A stretch of DNA of 64,000 nt. Source: an uncultured Rivularia sp. GTDB lineage: Bacteria > Cyanobacteriota > Cyanobacteriia > Cyanobacteriales > Nostocaceae. Where the stretch lies: NCBI GenBank assembly GCA_963665115.1, contig OY762007.1, positions 3,360,001 to 3,424,000 on the forward strand, read 5' to 3'. Both the position numbers and the translations under genes were made by a program. The notes below the pieces were generated by a model that saw only the letters and a program-made list of their open reading frames with translations, was not told where the DNA came from and searched no databases. Shown one piece after another: positions 22,401-36,022 of this stretch (within the stretch, counting starts at the first letter, position 1; the number at the start of each line of letters is the position of its first letter).

Positions 22401-22592
22401 GTTGGTTTTATTCCCTTGATTGCCGATGGCGACCCTTTCTGGCTACCTTTGGCGATTGCGATCGCGGGTGGAATTGGTGGTTCTCCGCTACTGGCGCTTT
22501 ATTTTACCCCTGCTGCTTATTTATTAGTGAAAGGACGGAGGAAGAATACGAGGAAGCGGAAACAGCTTTTGCTTCCTCCGGCGGTTTCTTGA
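19413..22592 (+). CDS. RND efflux permease (AcrB/AcrD/AcrF family)
   Basis: LPRQEDP, FPGASAERVE, GLLIDNAIVV; two hydrophobic TM bundles; 1059 aa. Confidence 0.95.
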   Translation: MVLPFFRNVRLLILTFVLIIFWGLSAFQSLPRQEDPQLVARTAIVTTVFPGASAERVEALVTEVIESEMSEIEEIDTITSDSRVGLSTVSIELKQTISKAKPIWTRVRDKLADASPQFPPGVLEPDLNETETRAYAVIASLVWEGDEPNYAILRRFAEELDVQIRGVGGTEKVDTFGFPSEEVTVEINPSDLAAVGLNARQLSQQILQSDAKTSAGQLRSPNNTLAIEVEGELNSLERIRQIPISSTNNGQFTRLGDIARVTRGIREPVSELALIGSKPGVSLGVLMESGNRIDLWAKRIREQIEDFRQRLPNGVKLEVLFDQSSYVETRLDNLISNLLFSAFLVVAVTFVGMGWRSSIIVGAALPLTVFAVFGELQIFNIPIHQMSVSGLIIALGLLIDNAIVVVDEIQVELEHGLKPKDAVVKTVNYLTVPLLTSSLTTILTFLPIGLLPGEAGEFVGSIAWGVIMSLVSSLVISLTVIAALSGRFLAKTQVDEEDIRPKRKSAKSRLLTKLKNPDAWWNSGFSSPFLGRIYRKTLNWATAKPLIAIVLTMILPVMGFINVGSLPTQFFPSLARDQFQIEVEFPAQTSIAQSREDVLLARKLIQEHSEVEEVHWFVGESAPKFYYNFTGGIKNAAYYAQAMVQLNTNKGVPQLIRTLQDELDSAFPSARVLVKQLEQGPPFEAPVEMRIFGSDIQQLRILGSQVREILTQIPDVTHVRDDLTETLPKLGLEVDEEQARLVGLDNRAIAQQLESYLEGSVGGSILESTENLPVRVRIANSNRGDLSQIASLNLQPTQQGGTEPNLRPLSALGKFNLVPQLAKISRRNEQRVNTVQAFISAGVLPSVVLGELQERLETQEFESKLPPGYRYEFGGEQAESGEATGNLMSTVGLLGLIMVITLVLSLGSFRMAGIVFAVGVGSVGLALFALWVFGSVFGFMAIVGTMGLIGIAINGAIIILSAFNEDEAAKNGDVKAVREVVVKATRHVLTTTITTMVGFIPLIADGDPFWLPLAIAIAGGIGGSPLLALYFTPAAYLLVKGRRKNTRKRKQLLLPPAVS

Positions 22593-22972: not shown

Positions 22973-24277
22973 ATGAGCAATACAAAATTTTGGCGAAATG
23001 CTTACCAGTTATTTAAACCAGAGGAACCTCTGGTAACGGCTGAAGACCTGAGAAATTTTTACGTACAAAGAGATAACAGTCCCTTGGATAAGCTGGTCAG
23101 TTTGCTAGAAATGGAGGATGATCCAGCAAAATTTTTATTGGCTGGTCATAGAGGTGGTGGAAAAACTACTGAGTTGCGACGGTTGCAACAAAAAGTAGCT
23201 GATTTTTACACTGTTATTTGGATTGATACGCAAAGTGCTTTAGACAGATACAATATTGGCTATGCGGAAGTGATAGTTTTAATTGGTTTAGAAATTGCAC
23301 GTCAAGCCATTCAATCTAATTGGTTATCTAATAGGAAAAATGAATTATTAAACGCTCTGCAAGATAGTCTTAAAGCTGTAGTTTATCAAGATAAAGATAG
23401 TGAAACTGATGGTTTGCAATTTCCAGAGTTTCTGACCAAGTTAGGATTAGTTCTTAAGCGTGGTTTAACTAGAGAGGTAACTAAAACTCTTAATGTTCGC
23501 CCTTTATTGAGCGAAATTATTGTTAGAGTTAATGATATTATCGAAGCTGCGGAAAAGGAAAGAGAGCAAAAATTAATGATAGTTGTTGATGGTTTGGATA
23601 GACATGACCAAGTAACTGCTTTGGAGATGTTTTCTAGTCCATTGTTAGTAGAATTAAACTCTCATATTATCTATTCAATTCCTATTTCTTTGCGATATTC
23701 TCCAAGTTTTCGTCAGCCAATGGAAAGTTTTCAAAAATGCTTAGATTTGAATAATCCTCCAGTGTTTGAATCTGACGACAATTTATGTCCGACTAATAAT
23801 CCCAATCAATATGGTCGAGAAATTTTAATTAAAGTAATAAATGCGCGTCTTGTTAAGTTGGGTGATAGTTATAAAGGTTTATTTAATCCCGATGCTTTGG
23901 AATTAATTTGTGAAAAAAGCGGTGGTGTGATGCGAGATTTAGTTAGGCTTGCACGTACTACCTGTGAAATTGGATTGCGAAATAAACTTTCGTTTATAGA
24001 TTTAAAAGCTGCACGAGAAGCAGTGCAAGAAGTACGTCGAGAGTATAATTTAAGTGACTACCACTATCCGGAACTTGATTCTATACACAAAAGTGGGAAG
24101 TTAACTACTAACACTCATAAATTACCTAACAAAGGTGAATTTATAATTGCTGACGAACTTTTACAGAATAAACTAGTTTTAGGTTATTACAACTCAAAAC
24201 AGGAGTCTTGGTTTGATATTAATCCTATTTTGATGGAAGATTTACAGCGTTGGCAAGCTACAACTAATATTTCATAA
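22973..24277 (+). CDS. P-loop ATPase (STAND/AAA-like), intact Walker motifs
   Basis: Walker A GHRGGGKT, Walker B IVVDGLD, SGGVMRDL; ATG at 22973 preferred over TTG 22931. Confidence 0.85.
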   Translation: MSNTKFWRNAYQLFKPEEPLVTAEDLRNFYVQRDNSPLDKLVSLLEMEDDPAKFLLAGHRGGGKTTELRRLQQKVADFYTVIWIDTQSALDRYNIGYAEVIVLIGLEIARQAIQSNWLSNRKNELLNALQDSLKAVVYQDKDSETDGLQFPEFLTKLGLVLKRGLTREVTKTLNVRPLLSEIIVRVNDIIEAAEKEREQKLMIVVDGLDRHDQVTALEMFSSPLLVELNSHIIYSIPISLRYSPSFRQPMESFQKCLDLNNPPVFESDDNLCPTNNPNQYGREILIKVINARLVKLGDSYKGLFNPDALELICEKSGGVMRDLVRLARTTCEIGLRNKLSFIDLKAAREAVQEVRREYNLSDYHYPELDSIHKSGKLTTNTHKLPNKGEFIIADELLQNKLVLGYYNSKQESWFDINPILMEDLQRWQATTNIS

Positions 24278-24330
24278 AAGTTTTTCATCCTCATTTTTAT
24301 CTATCAATATTAACTTTATCTGGTTGGTAT

Positions 24331-27300
24331 ATGCTTAATCAAGACACTAATTATTATTTAAGTGAAGTTGATAAGAAGGAATTAGATAAGTTAGTTGTTT
24401 TATTAGAACTTTCCAGTGGAACGACAATTATTTTTGGCATTACACCAGAAATTAGTCCCCAACATATAGTAGTCAAAAGTCTGAAGGAATCTTTAGAAAC
24501 AACTGAAGAAAGTTTTGAGTCTTATAACTTTTTTTATAGCGAAGATTCTTTTCATAATTTTCTTTATAGCTTGGATGATAATAAACAGCAGAATACCCAA
24601 GCTGAGCGCAAATTGGTGATGGCATTTGGAATTGACCAATTACCTACACCGCGCTTGGTTAAAGAAATGAAACAACTTAATTTAGGTAGAGAAGAGCTAT
24701 TTGGAAGAAATTTAGTATTAATTTTATGGCTCAATAAAGAACGGTTTTTAGATGAATTTCGTCAGCGTGCGCCAGATTTTTGGGATTGGCGAGAAAAGGT
24801 AGTAAAATTTGAAACACGCAATCCCTTACTTTATCCCTATTTAGAGTGGTTAATTGCTGAGAATTCTTATCTCAAAATGAGTGGCGTAATGCAGGTAAAT
24901 CGCCAAGTTGATATTTTTCTTGACCAAGTTTATGTATCCCTACAAGCACAATGGCGACAACATATTACCGAAACTTCTGAGGCTAATACAACAAAACCTA
25001 ATGCGGCGAGTGTATCGCAATCTCGAAGTGTTAAATTTGACGAGATGGATGTTGGTCAAGATGATTTGGATGAAGCCTACGATTACGAACCACTTCCTGA
25101 AGACTCAATAACTGTTTCTAGCACTGAAACCATTATCCGAAAAATCGCATTATCTCAGGCGGTACGAGAAAATCCTTATAGTGTGATTTTAGGCGCTCCA
25201 GGTGCAGGGAAGACTACTCTTCTACGTTATTTAGCGTTACATTTTGCAAGAACAAAAAGAGATAATAAGGAAACAGTAATTGTTGGCGAAGACAAGGAAG
25301 AATTAAGTAAAACTTTGTTACCAGTTTTCTTTCGGATTGCTGACTTTGCAGAGCAACTCGAACAACAGCCAAATTTAACTTTATTTGAATATCTACGTCA
25401 GTTTTACCGTCAGTGGGAAGCTCATTTTCAAACAGAAGAAGAAATGGGAACTCCGAAAGAGGTAGCAGAATTTCTTCTATTGAGGATGCGTCAAGGACAG
25501 TGCTTGATGTTGCTAGATGGTTTAGATGAGGTATTTGACCAAGAAAGTCGTAAACAAATTGTAAAACGTATTAATCAGTTTGTTGATAAGTTTCCTAACA
25601 ACAAATTTGTAATTACCAGTCGTATTGCTGGCTACCGCGATGTGCAATTAAGCGATAGGTTTGCAGAATTTACCATTGAAGACATGGATAGCGAACAGGT
25701 AGAACGATTCCTATCTCGCTGGTGTTATACAGTTGAAAAAGCGCAACAGCCAGATGCTAGTGAAGAGCAATGGCATAAGAGAGGAGATGAGCAAATACAA
25801 GACATTTTACAGTCAGTTGAAGACAATGAGGGCGTAAAGCGGTTAACAACAAACCCCCTACTGTTAACTATTTTGGCACTCATTCACCGAAATGGCGATC
25901 GCCTTCCCAATCGTCGAGTTAAACTCTATGAATTAGCAGTGCAAACTTTGACGGAAGATTGGCAACTTAGTAAGAAATTACCAGATGCACCAAAAGTAGT
26001 GTTAAAGGAAACAGAAGTAGTAGAACTTTTAGCACCTTTAGCATATTGGATGCATGAAGAAAAACCTTCTGGTGTAGTTAGTCAGCAAGAAGTTGAAGAA
26101 AATTTAGCACAAAAACTAGCGGAAACTGAATGATGATGAGCCAGAGTCAGAATCCGTGCTTCAAGCGGTAGGGGAGTTTTTGCGTAAAGTACGGGAAACC
26201 ACAGGTTTATTTGTGGAAAAAACACCAGGGTTTTACGGGTTTATGCATCTGACGTTTGAAGAATATTTTGCTGCTCGTTATATTGCGGATAACGACCTAA
26301 GTGATATTCTACAACTAATCCAGAACCATCTCCACGAACCGCGCTGGAATGAACCTATTTTATTAGCTTTAGGGTATTACGGAATTCATTTTCCTAGACA
26401 AGTTAAAAAATTAGTAGAAAGACTGTTCAAGAATTTAGAAGATTATCAACCGACTTTACAACATGGTGAGATACAAATTAAAAATTCTTCATCTGATGAT
26501 GCAATTATTTTTTACTTCAAAGCGGACGATGAATCAGAAAACAACTCCCAAGAAGTAGAATTCAAATTGAAGGATTTGTTGTTTGCTGGACAGGTAATTG
26601 CAGAAGTTGAAGTTAATAGTAATTTTCGGAAAAAGCTGATTCGTAAGTTAGTTATTACCTATCTTGGTATAGATACTGATGACTTTGGAGATGATACGAC
26701 TAAGCATTTATTAAGATTACTGCGTAAAATAGAACAGTTTTATAAAAAAAATGAAATCATAGATTTATTAAAAGAATTTGCTAATGAATCAACCCTGTCT
26801 GAAGAAATTCGTATTGTAGCAAAAACAGCCATTCTTTATATTGCTTGTAGTGATTCAGTAGAATTAGTTAATTTTGCGACAGAATTTGTTAATGAATTAG
26901 AGCCATTTTTATTTTTATATACTATTGGTTTTGTGCAAAATCTTGGTCAAGATATGACATCTGTTCTCGAAGCTAGTAGAAAGTATAACTTAGCTGAAGA
27001 ACGATGTCAAACAGCATTAACTTTTCTTACAGGAATATTTTACATTCGTAAAGATAAATATGATTTAGCTATATCTATTTTAGAAGATATTAATGAGCAA
27101 TATAATAGTAGTTTAGGAGCATTTATTGATTGGGCATTGGCATTTTGTTATCAAGAAAAAAAAGAATATGAAAAAGCTAATAAGTATTACAATAAGGCAA
27201 AAACATCTAATGACTTTATAAATAGCGCTTATTTCTGGCTTTCTTGGGGTAAATGTCAATCAGATTACAAAAAATATGAAGAATCATTAAACTATTATCA

Positions 27301-29752
27301 AAAAACATTATCTATAATAAAAAAATTAGGCGTTCCAAAATACGAAGCAAGTATTTTAAGCATTGTTGGTAGAGTATATCAATGTTGGGGTAAATACCAA
27401 CAAGCGATTAACTATCACCAACAAAGTAAAGATATTTATCAACAGTTAGATCGAGATAAAGATATTGCTAACCAGTGGACTTTGCTAGGTAACTGCTATC
27501 GTTCATGGGGTAAATACGACCAAGCTGTTGAATCTCAAAATAAAGATTTAGAAATTCATCAGCAATTGAATGACCAAGTTAATATTGCTAAAGCATACTA
27601 TCAACTAGGAATGATTTATCAAGACTGGGGTAAATATGAGCAAGCTGTTGATTACTATCAACAAAGCAAAGAACTTAATCAAAAATCAGGTCGTAATAAA
27701 TATGTTATTAACCACTGGTCTCGTCTGGGTGAATGCTATCATTCATGGGGTAAATATGAGCAAGCTGTTGAATGTAAAAATCAATGCTTAACAATTAGTC
27801 AACAGGTAGACGACCAAGCCGGTATTGCATTCGCATACTATGAATTAGGAACGATTTATCAAGATTGGAATAAATACGAACAAGCTGTTGAATATAAAAA
27901 TAAAGAATTAGAAATTTATCAGCGGTTGGATAACCAAGCCGATATTGCATTCGCATACTATCAAATAGGAGAGATTTATACTTATTGGGATAAATACGAA
28001 CAAGCTGTTGATTACTACCGACAAAGTAAAGATATTTATCAACAATTAGGTCTGAATAAAAAAGTTGCTGACCAGTGGAACAATCTTGCTGATTGCTATC
28101 ACTTATCAGGTCAATACGAAAAAGCTGTTGAATGTAAAAATCAATGCTTAAAAATTCGTCAGCAGTTAAATGACCAAATTAATATTGCTGACGCTTATCA
28201 TCAGCTAGGAAGGATTTATACTGATTGGAGTAAATACGAGCAAGCTGTTGATTACTACCAACAAAGTAAAGATATTTATCAACAATTAGGTCGAGATAAA
28301 AGTGTTGCTAGCCAGTGTAAAAATATAGCATACTGCTATCGGTTATGGGGTAAATACAAACAAGCTATTGAATATCAAAATCAATGCTTAGCAATTCGTC
28401 AACAATTGGATGAACAAGCAAATATTGCATTAGCATACGTTCACTTAGGATGGATTTATCAAGATTGGGGCAAATATGAACAAGCTACTAATTACTATCA
28501 AAAAAGTAAAGACATTTATCAACAATTAGAACGAAATAAAGATATTGCTAATCAATGGTATAATTTAGCTGATTGCTATCGCTTATGGAGTAAATACGAA
28601 CAAGCAATCGAATATCAAAGTAAATGCTTAAGAATTCGTCAGCAGATAAACGACCAAGCTGATATTGCATTAACTTACTATCAATTAGGAAGGATTTACA
28701 CTTACTGGGGTAAATACGAACAAGCTGTTAATTACTATCAACAAAGTAAAGAAATTTATAAACAGTTAGGTAGGGATAAAGATATTGTTAGACAGTGGAA
28801 TAGCTTAGCTTATTGCTATCGGTTATGGGATAAATACGAACAAGCTATTGAATATCAAAATCAAGCCTTAACAATTTGTCAGCAGTTGGATAAGCAAGCT
28901 GATATTGCACTCGCATATTTTGCATTAGGATGGATTTATCAAAGTTGGTGTAAATACCAACAAGCTATTGATTATTACCAACAAAGTAAAGATATTTATC
29001 AACAATTAGGTCGAGATAAAGATGTTGCTAGCCAAAGGTCTTTGCTAGGTAATTGCTATCGAAGTTCAAAAGACTATAAAAAAGCAATTGAGTGTTGTCA
29101 ACAAAGCCTTGCTTTGTACCAACAGTTAGGTCAGGATGAAAGCGTAGGTAGACAGTATCAAAAACTTGCTTACTCTCAAAGCCTATTAGCAAAACATACT
29201 TCAAATCAAATAGAAAGTTCTGAATTACTAACACAAGCAGAAGAAAACATAAATCAAGCCATAAAAATAAATACTACAGGCGAATATATAAAAAATCTTG
29301 CTTACGACTACATTGTTTTCAGTTTGCTCTGCTCAGAACGTTTACGCTGGATACCTAACGACTCATCAAAACAAGAAAAAATTCCCTTATTTGAAGAGTA
29401 TTACCATAAGGGTTTTACCCATTTTGATGAATTAGGACAAGCAATAAAAAAATCAGGACAAGCTCTTAATATTGCTCGTGCTTATTTAGAAGTGGAAGCT
29501 CTAGAAAATCTTGATAAAAGCGAAGAAATCGCCAAAGAATGTTTGCAAGTCTCTCAAGACTATAACCGCCGAAAATTAGAAGCCGCAGCACGCAAACTAT
29601 TAGGTGAAATTTACCAGAAACGCACTCAACAAAATCAGCCAGACGCAGAGTCAATTGCTACCCAGTTTTTATCAGAAAGTCTACAAATTTATCAAGATTT
29701 GGATTTACAAGAAAAAGCAGCCGAAGTAGAGCAGATTCTGTATCCTAACTAA
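24331..29752 (+). CDS. ~1806-aa NLR-like protein: degenerate ATPase-like domain, NACHT, TPR array; split by one extra A at 26123-26125
   Basis: RAPDFWDWR; GAPGAGKTT; LLDGLDEV; VITSR; NPLLL; FMHLTFEEYFAA in the second ORF; repair gives QKLAELNDDEPESESVLQ. Confidence 0.87.
27386..29185 (+). repeat. Intragenic 120-bp (40-aa TPR) tandem array, 14 conserved units + 1 degenerate
   Basis: W(G/S/D)KYEQA starts recur exactly every 120 bp from 27386. Confidence 0.93.
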
Positions 29753-29884
29753 ACGCTTAGAAGAGCCGGTGCTGTACAAGTCGGCTGCTCACTTGAGGTT
29801 AAGTTCGGATAAGCTAAAAGGTTTGGTTACTTGAAAAAAGCAATTTCTTAATTATCAACGGTAATTTTCAGTAAACTAAACTGC

Positions 29885-33458: not shown

Positions 33459-35081
33459 ATGTCACAATCTGAAGTTACTTTATTCAGCAAACCTAACTGT
33501 AACTATTGCGCTAAAGCCAAAGCCGTTTTTAAACGATTTAATATTAATTTTCAAGAATATGATGTTAAAGCCAATCAACGAAACGCAGACGCATCAGTTT
33601 ATTTAAGTGGTGCAACAACTGTACCGCAGATTTTCATCAGTAATTATCATATCAACGGCGCTGAAGATTTAGAAAAGCTCGAAAAATCGGGAAGACTTGC
33701 AAAACTCCTAGAGACAAATACAGGAGATTTATCCCTCGTTCAACTTTCAGATGCCGAATTACAAGAAGGCGCAAAAGACGTTTCTTTAAGTCAATATATT
33801 CCCCAAAGCGATGGTAGCCGTGATAAAGACGCAGAAATTTTACCAATTCTGCACTTTTACAAAGAATTCTTCGGATTTTGGCCCAACACCTTTGCTTATT
33901 TACATAACTGGATTGAAGCTTACAAACTCTTCGTTTACTGCCAAAACTTCTCCGCAGTTGGATACGCCAAACAAGCACTAGGCATGAAAAATATTAGTGC
34001 AGTTGGTTATTTGACTTCTAATGCACATGGCTGCTCATATTGTCAGGTACACAGTGTAGCGACAATGGGCGAACATTCCCTGGATATGGTAGGAAAATTT
34101 AAGCAAGCCAGTCAGGGAGAAGCATTAGAGAACAATCCATTTAATGATTTTGAAATGGCTTTAGCAAAACTTGCAGGTGATGCAACGTTAAATCAAGTTG
34201 AAGATAGTTTTTTAGAAGATATTCGACATTTAGCGAAAGATACTTCAAGAGAAATAAATGCCGATGCTTCTATCGAAGCGACATTACTTGTTACTGCTTC
34301 CTTCGGCTTTCTCAACGTTTTTAACGATTTGACTGGATTAGAAATAGAAGGAGATTGGGCGCGTCAAGCCAGCGAAAAAGTTGGTATAGAAGGGGGAAGA
34401 CATGGTACGGGAAATTCTAATCCATCTAATTTAGATTACGAAATACCGGAAGGTAATTTATCAATTCAAGATATGCTCGCAAAGTATAATTCAGCAATTG
34501 AGAATCTTGACAGCTATCTAGAGAAAGAATTAGGATTTTTTCCAGCCTGGATTAAGAAGTGGGTGCAGGCATTACAAAAGCACCACGCTTATATTTATGT
34601 CGAGCTAATGAGCGATCGCCATCATAGTTTAATTCCAGCAGAGCTTAAGCATTTGATGGCAAGGGTTTGTGCAATAGCCAAGAATCATGATTATCTGGCA
34701 GCAGCAGAAGGATATTTTGCTTATCACACAGCTACAGATAAAGAGCTTGCAGTTGAAAGGATTCGTCAATGTTATTTAGCTGCAACAAATCGAGGAGATA
34801 CTGACGAATTATTCAGCGAAAAAGAAAAAGCCGCACTTCAATTTGCTTGGGTATCGGCTCAAACTCCACTAACAACACCATATCGATTTGTAGAAGCTGT
34901 AATTAAAGAGTATCAGCCTAAAGAACTTGTTCATTTAATAGTAGTTTGTTCAATTGGATCGATGGTGCAGCGGTTTGTTGCAGCAGCTAAACCAGAAATT
35001 GAGCCGGTTGTGAATCAGTTTTTAGATAAATATTCTTTGGAGACAGATACGTTGATGCTTCGGTATCCTTTGTTTAAATAA
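33459..35081 (+). CDS. Glutaredoxin fused to two AhpD/CMD-like domains
   Basis: CNYC, TVPQIFI, INGAEDL; AHGCSYCQVH; duplicated GFWP/GFFP segments; GGAGA RBS. Confidence 0.75.
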   Translation: MSQSEVTLFSKPNCNYCAKAKAVFKRFNINFQEYDVKANQRNADASVYLSGATTVPQIFISNYHINGAEDLEKLEKSGRLAKLLETNTGDLSLVQLSDAELQEGAKDVSLSQYIPQSDGSRDKDAEILPILHFYKEFFGFWPNTFAYLHNWIEAYKLFVYCQNFSAVGYAKQALGMKNISAVGYLTSNAHGCSYCQVHSVATMGEHSLDMVGKFKQASQGEALENNPFNDFEMALAKLAGDATLNQVEDSFLEDIRHLAKDTSREINADASIEATLLVTASFGFLNVFNDLTGLEIEGDWARQASEKVGIEGGRHGTGNSNPSNLDYEIPEGNLSIQDMLAKYNSAIENLDSYLEKELGFFPAWIKKWVQALQKHHAYIYVELMSDRHHSLIPAELKHLMARVCAIAKNHDYLAAAEGYFAYHTATDKELAVERIRQCYLAATNRGDTDELFSEKEKAALQFAWVSAQTPLTTPYRFVEAVIKEYQPKELVHLIVVCSIGSMVQRFVAAAKPEIEPVVNQFLDKYSLETDTLMLRYPLFK

Positions 35082-35128
35082 TAGAGCGTTGCTGGCTCAA
35101 AATATCATGTAGTGGTTTTACATTGTTT

Positions 35129-35154
35129 GAGACGTAGCATTGCTACGTCTCTAC
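35129..35154. repeat. REP-like palindrome, family A
   Basis: GAGACGTAGCATTGCTACGTCTCTAC between convergent genes. Confidence 0.85.
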
Positions 35155-35164
35155 ATCGGTGTAA

Positions 35165-35533
35165 TTATTCTTCAGAATTGGCTTTTAATATACTTTCTTT
35201 CATTGGCTTATATGGAGTCAAAGTCATCCAAGGCTGAATTTCTAAATTACAAAACCAATCTTTAACAGTTGGAATCCAACCTAAATCATCTTGAATGTGC
35301 TGCTCTGCAATAATACGAACCGGAATCTTTTTATTAGCAGCATTTTCGATGGTGACTCCGAACAGTTTTTCGCACATAAAAATACCTTCTGCATGATGTC
35401 TAAGTGCGCGATGTCGGAAATCTGGTAAAAACGCTTTTGACTCATCAAACCAGTTGTGAATATCAAGATAATCTTCAGGAATGCCACCAAAGCTTTCTGC
35501 TGAGCGAACCGCATGATACCAAGAATGAGTCAT
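35165..35533 (-). CDS. DUF6915-like His-rich protein
   Basis: H..YHA.RS..SFGG.PEDY..IH.WFD.SK, RHRALRHHAEG, IAEQH..D.G.IP. Confidence 0.7.
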   Translation of the reverse strand: MTHSWYHAVRSAESFGGIPEDYLDIHNWFDESKAFLPDFRHRALRHHAEGIFMCEKLFGVTIENAANKKIPVRIIAEQHIQDDLGWIPTVKDWFCNLEIQPWMTLTPYKPMKESILKANSEE

Positions 35534-35538
35534 AATAA

Positions 35539-36022
35539 TTATCGATCCTGTTCGTCAACTATCTTTCCAGTCACCAAACTTGCTCTGAAAGAACCTTTCA
35601 TCGAGTACTCACCCGTACCGTAACCGCTACCAAGTAAATAAGTCGCTAACGAACGAGCAAATCCATCTAGATAAAATTCGACTCGTACTCGTGGAGATGG
35701 TTTCTGTATAACCGGCATAGTAACGAATTAGATTTTCAGATGTTTTGCTACCAAGTGAACTTTCTGCAAGTAATGATTTGAGTTCTTCAAATTCTACGGT
35801 TCTATCTTCAAGTTTTGCCCCGGTAAGATCGGCAAATCCCTCATCATGCCCACCGTTGTATCGACAATAAACGGTTTTTACGCCAATTTCATGCAATACA
35901 TCGAAGACTTGACGTGAATCGGAATCAAGATTTTCTGGACTAAATTTTAATTCTCCAATAGCTGGTTCGTATTCATACTTCCTTTTACCGGGCAATTTAA
36001 AGTACGGCATATTAAAGTTCAA
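35539..36022 (-). CDS. DUF6878-like protein, split by one extra base at 35701-35703; ~160 aa repaired
   Basis: VYCRYNGGHDEG; repaired C-terminus EPSPRVRVEF..GSGYGTGEYSMKGSF..GKIVDEQDR* ends 5 bp before the next ATG. Confidence 0.55.

Follow-up and report, generated by a model that had tools for sequence, protein, structure and literature searches.

In type I BREX, an inactive, lid-less AAA+ core of the Orc/Cdc6 type (BrxB) accompanies an active Orc/Cdc6-type ATPase (BrxC) and supplies it with an arginine in trans (PMC13326643, PMC12839542). This arginine is given to the ATP pocket of BrxC and raises its ATPase activity 2-6-fold in the account of PMC13326643, and Orc4 is described as activating Orc1 likewise (PMC5291709). 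Here, a gene pair of an uncultured Rivularia sp. (assembly GCA_963665115.1, contig OY762007.1) is compared with these and other systems. The pair, gene 1 and gene 2, lies in a stretch of 64,000 nucleotides (positions 3,360,001 to 3,424,000 of the contig), called the window below, in which all positions are counted. On the best reading, drawn by analogy, it would be an active-plus-inactive pair of the STAND type, resembling BrxB-BrxC in its working and the two-gene nSTAND2 system in its layout.

The pair differs from BREX in having no PglX, PglZ or BrxA. Gene 1 encodes 434 amino acids (aa) against 1200-1300 aa for BrxC, and the N-terminal module of gene 2, unlike BrxB, has no PF08747 match, shows no cap sheet behind strand 4 and is joined to TPR/STAND sensors. 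The nSTAND2 system, as presented in PMC8195603, joins in one operon an active STAND-like nucleoside triphosphatase (NTPase) and an eroded one, with a predicted hetero-oligomer, the inactive partner being fused to variable domains. The cargo described there is GT4 or HEPN and both partners keep an arginine finger, whereas here the module carries TPR, nSTAND1-WD40 or NACHT-TPR and mostly one partner has the finger. Bacterial NACHT (bNACHT) and Avs proteins, as described in 10.1101/2022.07.19.500537 and PMC13581612, share with gene 2 the layout of effector slot, NACHT and TPR, the D[GAS]hDE signature and a diversifying sensor. In gene 2, however, a dead AAA+ core fills the effector slot, and a separate ATPase gene lies nearly always upstream.

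Three further systems were compared. iSTAND and iSTAND2 of the MoxR-vWA ternary systems, in the descriptions of PMC7159879 and PMC8195603, are also inactive STAND-like folds put to modular use in multicellular bacteria, but no MoxR or vWA gene is present at the locus and the module keeps strongly conserved surface residues. In the TIR-ParA systems (10.64898/2026.10.19.760177), a second NTPase module likewise occupies the effector slot of NACHT or nSTAND1 proteins, is coupled to an upstream gene and is proposed to act in a two-step NTP cascade; as described there, the graft is a ParA with an upstream TIR NADase, in contrast to the dead AAA+ core with an upstream ATPase found here. The origin recognition complex (ORC), whose sites are completed in trans by partly inactive neighbours according to PMC5291709, provides the best structural matches (Orc3, Orc4 and Cdc6), but the gene pair is bacterial, consists of two genes, is sensor-fused and gives no evidence of origin binding.

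No catalogued family in Pfam, PADLOC or NCBIfam, nor the nSTAND2, iSTAND and BrxB profiles, fits the architecture, which the initial annotation had supposed to be uncatalogued; PADLOC and NCBIfam name no system at the locus. Membership of nSTAND2 was rejected (PF20702 misses both genes at E<=1 and also the locus), as was that of iSTAND (PF19995 matches elsewhere in the genome, not at the locus) and of BREX (PF08747 matches C1:6194694 only, with no BREX match in PADLOC and no conserved third gene). No description of the pair was found in the literature searched, subscription papers and several supplements being beyond reach, and the clade of the pair may be classified in the STAND tables of PMC13581612. 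New here are the complementarity of the arginine finger, the empty sites along with a swap for pPIWI-RE, and the evidence that the sequencing runs give on a frameshift.

Results

The initial annotation had described an ATPase gene with intact Walker A and B motifs and, 53 bp further, a gene of about 1806 aa once one A is removed, with an N-terminus lacking Walker A, a complete NACHT, an acidic insertion before its P-loop and a TPR array. This layout was recovered throughout, the acidic stretch being a linker ahead of NACHT. Gene 1 runs from an ATG to a stop codon, with GHRGGGKT at aa 58 and IVVDGLD at aa 203. In gene 2 no Walker A is present before aa 288, LVMAFGIDQL stands at aa 95 and APDFWDWR at aa 147. 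All features are collected in Table 1.

Residues 12-160 of gene 2 are, according to the structure model, an AAA+ core without a P-loop. The AlphaFold2 model (predicted local distance difference test score, pLDDT, 84) is a five-stranded AAA+ core in which the P-loop lysine is missing and the first Walker B aspartate is substituted. In a search of 48,161 chains, Orc3, Orc4 and Orc1/Cdc6 came out on top, tied at Z 11.7-11.2, the best match being Orc3 (7jgr_C; Z 11.7, root-mean-square deviation (rmsd) 3.3, 162 residues aligned). The 50 best rows were all AAA+-type ATPases by title, with which Foldseek concurs, so that the earlier reading of this N-terminus as a dead ATPase is right. That reading had also found no recognisable effector, and neither an effector family match nor an N-terminal toxic domain (TIR, SIR2, nuclease, protease or transmembrane) was found on gene 2. 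Pfam holds no family for its first 170 residues, the best hits (DUF6240, ZUO1-like) staying weak; no sequence match was found among solved structures, and atlas matches of the module were below 0.9 and none was named.

A profile search with the module returned 2968 clusters at 50% identity, of which the 150 best, with 151 module domains, were tallied. The domain begins at most 40 residues from the N-terminus in 147 cases, a Walker A pattern occurs in none, and Arg120 is invariant (151/151, as well as 105/105 paired modules). Some members have a tandem double module, a kinase-like domain ahead of the module or another extra N-terminal domain (P0243, P0249, P0277; labels from sequence). Free-standing modules of 164-175 aa with no adjoining ATPase were seen in many genomes (L059:5424-5921; L094-L098); they are possibly decoys or tuners.

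By fold, gene 1 is predicted to be an Orc1/Cdc6/TnsC-type AAA+ ATPase. Its AlphaFold2 model (pLDDT 88) contains an AAA+ core, a helical insert (aa 97-197), a lid and a winged helix, and matched Cdc6 (7jgr_G; Z 16.9, rmsd 3.2, 248 residues aligned) and TnsC (7mbw_A; Z 16.1), besides archaeal Orc1 and the archaeal ATPases 2qen and 2fna. Both models also matched BrxC (Z 10.2 and 12.1). The features of the Orc1/Cdc6-STAND clade of AAA+ proteins are present, namely the AAA+ core, the lid with a sensor-2 arginine and the C-terminal winged helix. Pfam gave weak P-loop matches only. The KAP profile was weakly matched (21 bits, cut-off 20, spanning 172 of 293 positions) and an insert between Walker A and B is present, but Cdc6, TnsC and 2qen/2fna outscored the KAP-like RdrA against the model (Z 16.9-14.2 versus 11.8). 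A lysine in the insert, K162, is conserved among 35 ATPases compared. No phage homolog of gene 1 was found in the one collection searched, and a promoter scan at the locus stayed at chance level. Relatives of one distant ATPase of this type carry names from Bacteroidetes, Acidobacteriota and Desulfobacteraceae.

The two genes travel together. A module gene directly follows the gene 1-type ATPase at 47 of 54 related loci; of the other seven, three are copies that are broken or deleted, and four stop within about 1 kb. The same genome also has four distant paralogs of gene 1 (22-24% identity), and a module gene directly follows each of them (5/5 with gene 1); one of these module genes carries TPR only, one TPR-nSTAND1 and two TPR-nSTAND1-WD40. 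Seen from the module, the ATPase lies directly upstream at 26 of the 30 top-scoring loci (one of the 30 belongs to the genome itself, one ends early and three have no ATPase within 12 kb) and likewise for 37 of 40 additional long module genes, chosen by hand down the family list. Trees of 105 de-duplicated pairs (out of 116) have 32 of 46 and 28 of 35 well-supported splits in common, the 32 of 46 being ATPase splits that recur in the module tree. The genes thus co-occur, as supposed initially, and co-diverge, and the constant unit, judged from these gene orders, is ATPase plus dead module, with NACHT as one of several interchangeable cargoes. The relay of three NTPase domains proposed in the initial annotation would therefore not be fixed, and the version with TPR only has no third NTPase. 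No third or effector gene is conserved with the pair in the neighbourhoods of the related loci.

The module was found in 45 of 151 genomes of the phylum. All 22 genomes of the same family have it, often with 2-9 copies each; the count for the small-genome family f23 is 0 of 57. In one genus (L091-L093), long module genes have an altered motif, TDIETW, and the 7 kb or so upstream of them contain no ATPase; an ATPase encoded elsewhere may serve them in trans. A distant module-TPR gene at L060:4233-6468 also has no ATPase upstream; it is split over two frames and stands next to what we take to be a thiO/thiG-like gene.

The segment before strand 5 is the usual location of the AAA+ arginine finger. 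Among 35 ATPases compared, arginine is invariant in the lid alone (R292, R321). The 105 pairs were classed into three clades by Walker B, with 103 classified and two left unclassified. In clade A, to which the gene 1/gene 2 locus belongs, the module carries W-R in 44/44 pairs, and the ATPase has serine or alanine before strand 5 in 39 and arginine in five. Clade B, with TPR only, also has W-R in the module (22/22), and an arginine in the ATPase window in 2 of 22, with three unparsed. Clade C, with nSTAND1, shows the reverse: the module is without the arginine in 37/37 and the ATPase has it in 35/37. Ser252 of gene 1 stands at the position of the arginine in clade C and in the five clade A ATPases. 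In these alignments the putative finger is complementary, being on the module where the ATPase is without it and vice versa, and Arg154 of gene 2 would be the finger supplied by the module. This pattern matches two solved precedents, BrxB-BrxC and Orc4-Orc1.

Gene 2 is by its motifs assigned to the NACHT clade. PF05729 scored 48.2 bits against a cut-off of 26.7, and of 113 orthologs, 112 keep GAPGAGKT and all keep DGLDE (the D[GAS]hDE signature). The TPR array has a median identity of 50% versus 73% for the NACHT core (61 orthologs), and its length varies, the changes falling at set repeat positions; a diversifying C-terminal repeat sensor, a trait of bNACHT/Avs proteins, is thus present.

The pair forms a 7.26-kb insert between TTTCTT repeats, and its G+C content of 34.1% (genome, 37.9%) ranks among the lowest 2% of 1197 windows of equal size. 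It is missing from two complete same-genus genomes (G254, G258) and from the contigs of run X4, which bears out its placement in AT-rich accessory DNA. At the same site a third genome, G256, carries a complete three-gene island of the pPIWI-RE family, on which PMC3702460 reports (L142:1546-9643, G256:C2), with about 118 bp of the 3' end of the host gene duplicated. Clade A occurs in just 15 of 121 family genomes. Elsewhere, in a MoxR-vWA operon, a vWA protein has a gene 1-type ATPase fused to it at the effector end.

The last 440 bp of gene 2 (window 29311-29752) match lone stretches in G254 and G258, both without the pair, at 84-85%. In G254 this stretch comes after a glutamine-synthetase-like gene, and at locus L005 an intact pair comes after a type III glutamine synthetase gene. 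A deletion at a second site probably left the lone stretch behind. Further along the window (33459-36022) lies a 540-aa protein, presumably a glutaredoxin-like fusion; the two small genes behind it (122 and 131 aa) are unannotated.

Table 1. Positions of the gene pair and its features in the window.
Feature	Position	Strand	Evidence or remark
Left TTTCTT direct repeat	22585..22590		Left insert edge, at the stop codon of an upstream efflux-transporter-like gene; comparison with empty sites G254, G258
Gene 1, predicted Orc1/Cdc6/TnsC-type AAA+ ATPase, 434 aa	22973..24277	+	AlphaFold2 model, structural matches, weak KAP match
Gene 1 Walker A, GHRGGGKT	23144..23167	+	Invariant G58 H59 G61 G63 K64 T66 in 20 diverse members
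Gene 1 Walker B, IVVDGLD	23579..23599	+	Motif at aa 203
Gene 1 segment MESFQK before strand 5, with Ser252	23720..23737	+	Putative arginine-finger position
Gene 1 sensor-2-like SGGVMR	23918..23935	+	Arg321 invariant
Gene 2, 1806 aa on read-through: dead AAA+ module, acidic linker, NACHT, helical domains, TPR array	24331..29752	+	
Gene 2 predicted inactive AAA+ core, aa 12-160	24364..24810	+	AlphaFold2 model and Orc3 match
Gene 2 Arg120, end of helix after Walker-B-like strand	24688..24690	+	Invariant
Gene 2 APDFWDWR, short helix before strand 5	24769..24792	+	Arg154 as putative arginine finger
Gene 2 NACHT NTPase core with GAPGAGKT and DGLDE	25180..25722	+	PF05729 match
AAA run containing an additional base (apparent frameshift)	26123..26125	+	Contigs of runs X1-X3, ortholog P0145
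Gene 2 TPR array, 14 regular 40-aa units in alternating pairs	27338..29017	+	Copy number and set positions variable
Right TTTCTT direct repeat	29844..29849		Right edge of 7.26-kb insert

Discussion

Binding of the module to the gene 1 ATPase is likely. For the fuller proposal, that the docked module lends its finger and that sensing by the TPR array switches on the ATPase as output, probably in a response against invaders, the chances appear evenly balanced. By analogy with Avs and bNACHT biology, the variable TPR array would bind a foreign ligand and NACHT would oligomerise. The clustered modules would then bind the ATPase and put Arg154 and Arg120 across its ATP site, a step suggested by the fold, the motif complementarity and the BrxB-BrxC precedent; with a serine at its own finger position, gene 1 would be weak alone. 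In the least certain step, the activated ATPase might assemble on DNA in the manner of ORC or TnsC and bring replication or transcription to a halt, perhaps with a drain on ATP as well. DNA is the best guess for its target because the winged helix and the conserved insert lysine are retained, although a DNA-engaging output is itself rather doubtful. A generalisation is offered tentatively, namely that the dead AAA+ core is a portable plug on any sensor (TPR, WD40-nSTAND1 or NACHT-TPR) which activates a free Cdc6/TnsC-like ATPase by a lent finger, the ATPase being an unrecognised effector and free plugs decoys or tuners.

A role of the pair in defence is slightly favoured. The hints are its patchiness, the empty sites, the pPIWI-RE swap and a sensor diverging faster than NACHT, and the vWA-fused ATPase was counted as a further hint. 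Several observations weigh against these readings. The finger position was judged from secondary structure, not from coordinates, and the complementarity rests on three clades and thus on about three events, not 103, with arginine on both partners in the five clade A pairs. A profile comparison of module and ATPase was insignificant (probability 0.3%), the shared tree splits would follow from co-inheritance alone, and modules without an adjoining ATPase also exist. Gene 1 has no PADLOC match, and neither gene contains a known toxic domain. Among 82 non-redundant flanking proteins from 30 loci, defence-like neighbours were found at about four loci (L008, L017, L019, L034), 20 of 54 loci occupy one common housekeeping site, and the wider module family is near-universal in the same cyanobacterial family.

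This wide distribution of the module in several copies per genome, together with mostly housekeeping neighbours, would fit a split stress or development switch of large-genome, mostly filamentous cyanobacteria, in which the winged-helix ATPase acts as a transcription regulator like MalT or AfsR. STAND clades inside and outside defence are also described as interspersed (PMC13581612). Such a switch seems unlikely, since the NACHT clade is patchy and found at many different sites, one of them swapped for the pPIWI-RE island, and its sensor changes fast. With the same docking, the ATPase could also stand upstream as a guard or brake that restrains the NLR-like protein or baits phage inhibitors of ATPases, its release or disturbance triggering NACHT-TPR, with the output elsewhere. 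According to PMC13326643, BrxB, once bound, keeps BrxC from oligomerising further at the face concerned, so that interfaces of this kind can have a regulatory role. Free-standing modules of 165 aa are common, and the vWA-fused ATPase copy P0040 has lost its Walker A lysine. We nevertheless consider a guard improbable, as clade B uses the same pair with no second NTPase to guard, the module occupies the usual effector slot and no third gene accompanies the pair.

The open reading frame of gene 2 is split at the AAA run into 600 and 1198 aa. If the extra base were a real mutation of the lineage, only a 600-aa stub without the sensor would be made. Run X1 (depth about 200) carries it, and partner genes at several related loci are broken further downstream. 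It is missing, however, from the contigs of X2 and X3, the other two of three runs of the same organism, and a single frame bridges the junction at 43 of 54 related loci. The ortholog P0145 (1806 aa, 93% identity over aa 1-598) reads LAQKLAELNDDEPESESVLQAV through the break. At an 11-kb test locus, two more +1 bases are common to X1 and the assembly and missing in X2, with zero substitutions; X3 spans one of them and is also without it. All three extra bases sit in homopolymer runs, and three insertions without a substitution in 18.7 kb suggest an error mode common to X1 and the assembly, two sources that would not be independent. A homopolymer sequencing error is the probable origin of the extra A, a pseudogene is very unlikely, and the full-length protein assumed initially appears to exist. 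Extra bases of this +1 type were seen about once per 6 kb in two tested stretches. The assembly is seemingly rich in such errors (L057:8283 and 10525; L058:7187 region; L060), which makes other frameshifts in this genome doubtful.

Many NLR-like proteins of cyanobacteria are without a known effector, and the module family offers one answer, a docking ATPase fold in the effector slot. The complementary arginine lends itself to cheap and sharp tests with point mutants and with cognate versus non-cognate partners, for which five pairs are available in one genome. Should the free ATPase prove to be the output, it would represent a new effector class with an ORC-like logic of activation. The dead AAA+ core as a portable plug would, if true, amount to a new coupling rule in bacterial immunity.

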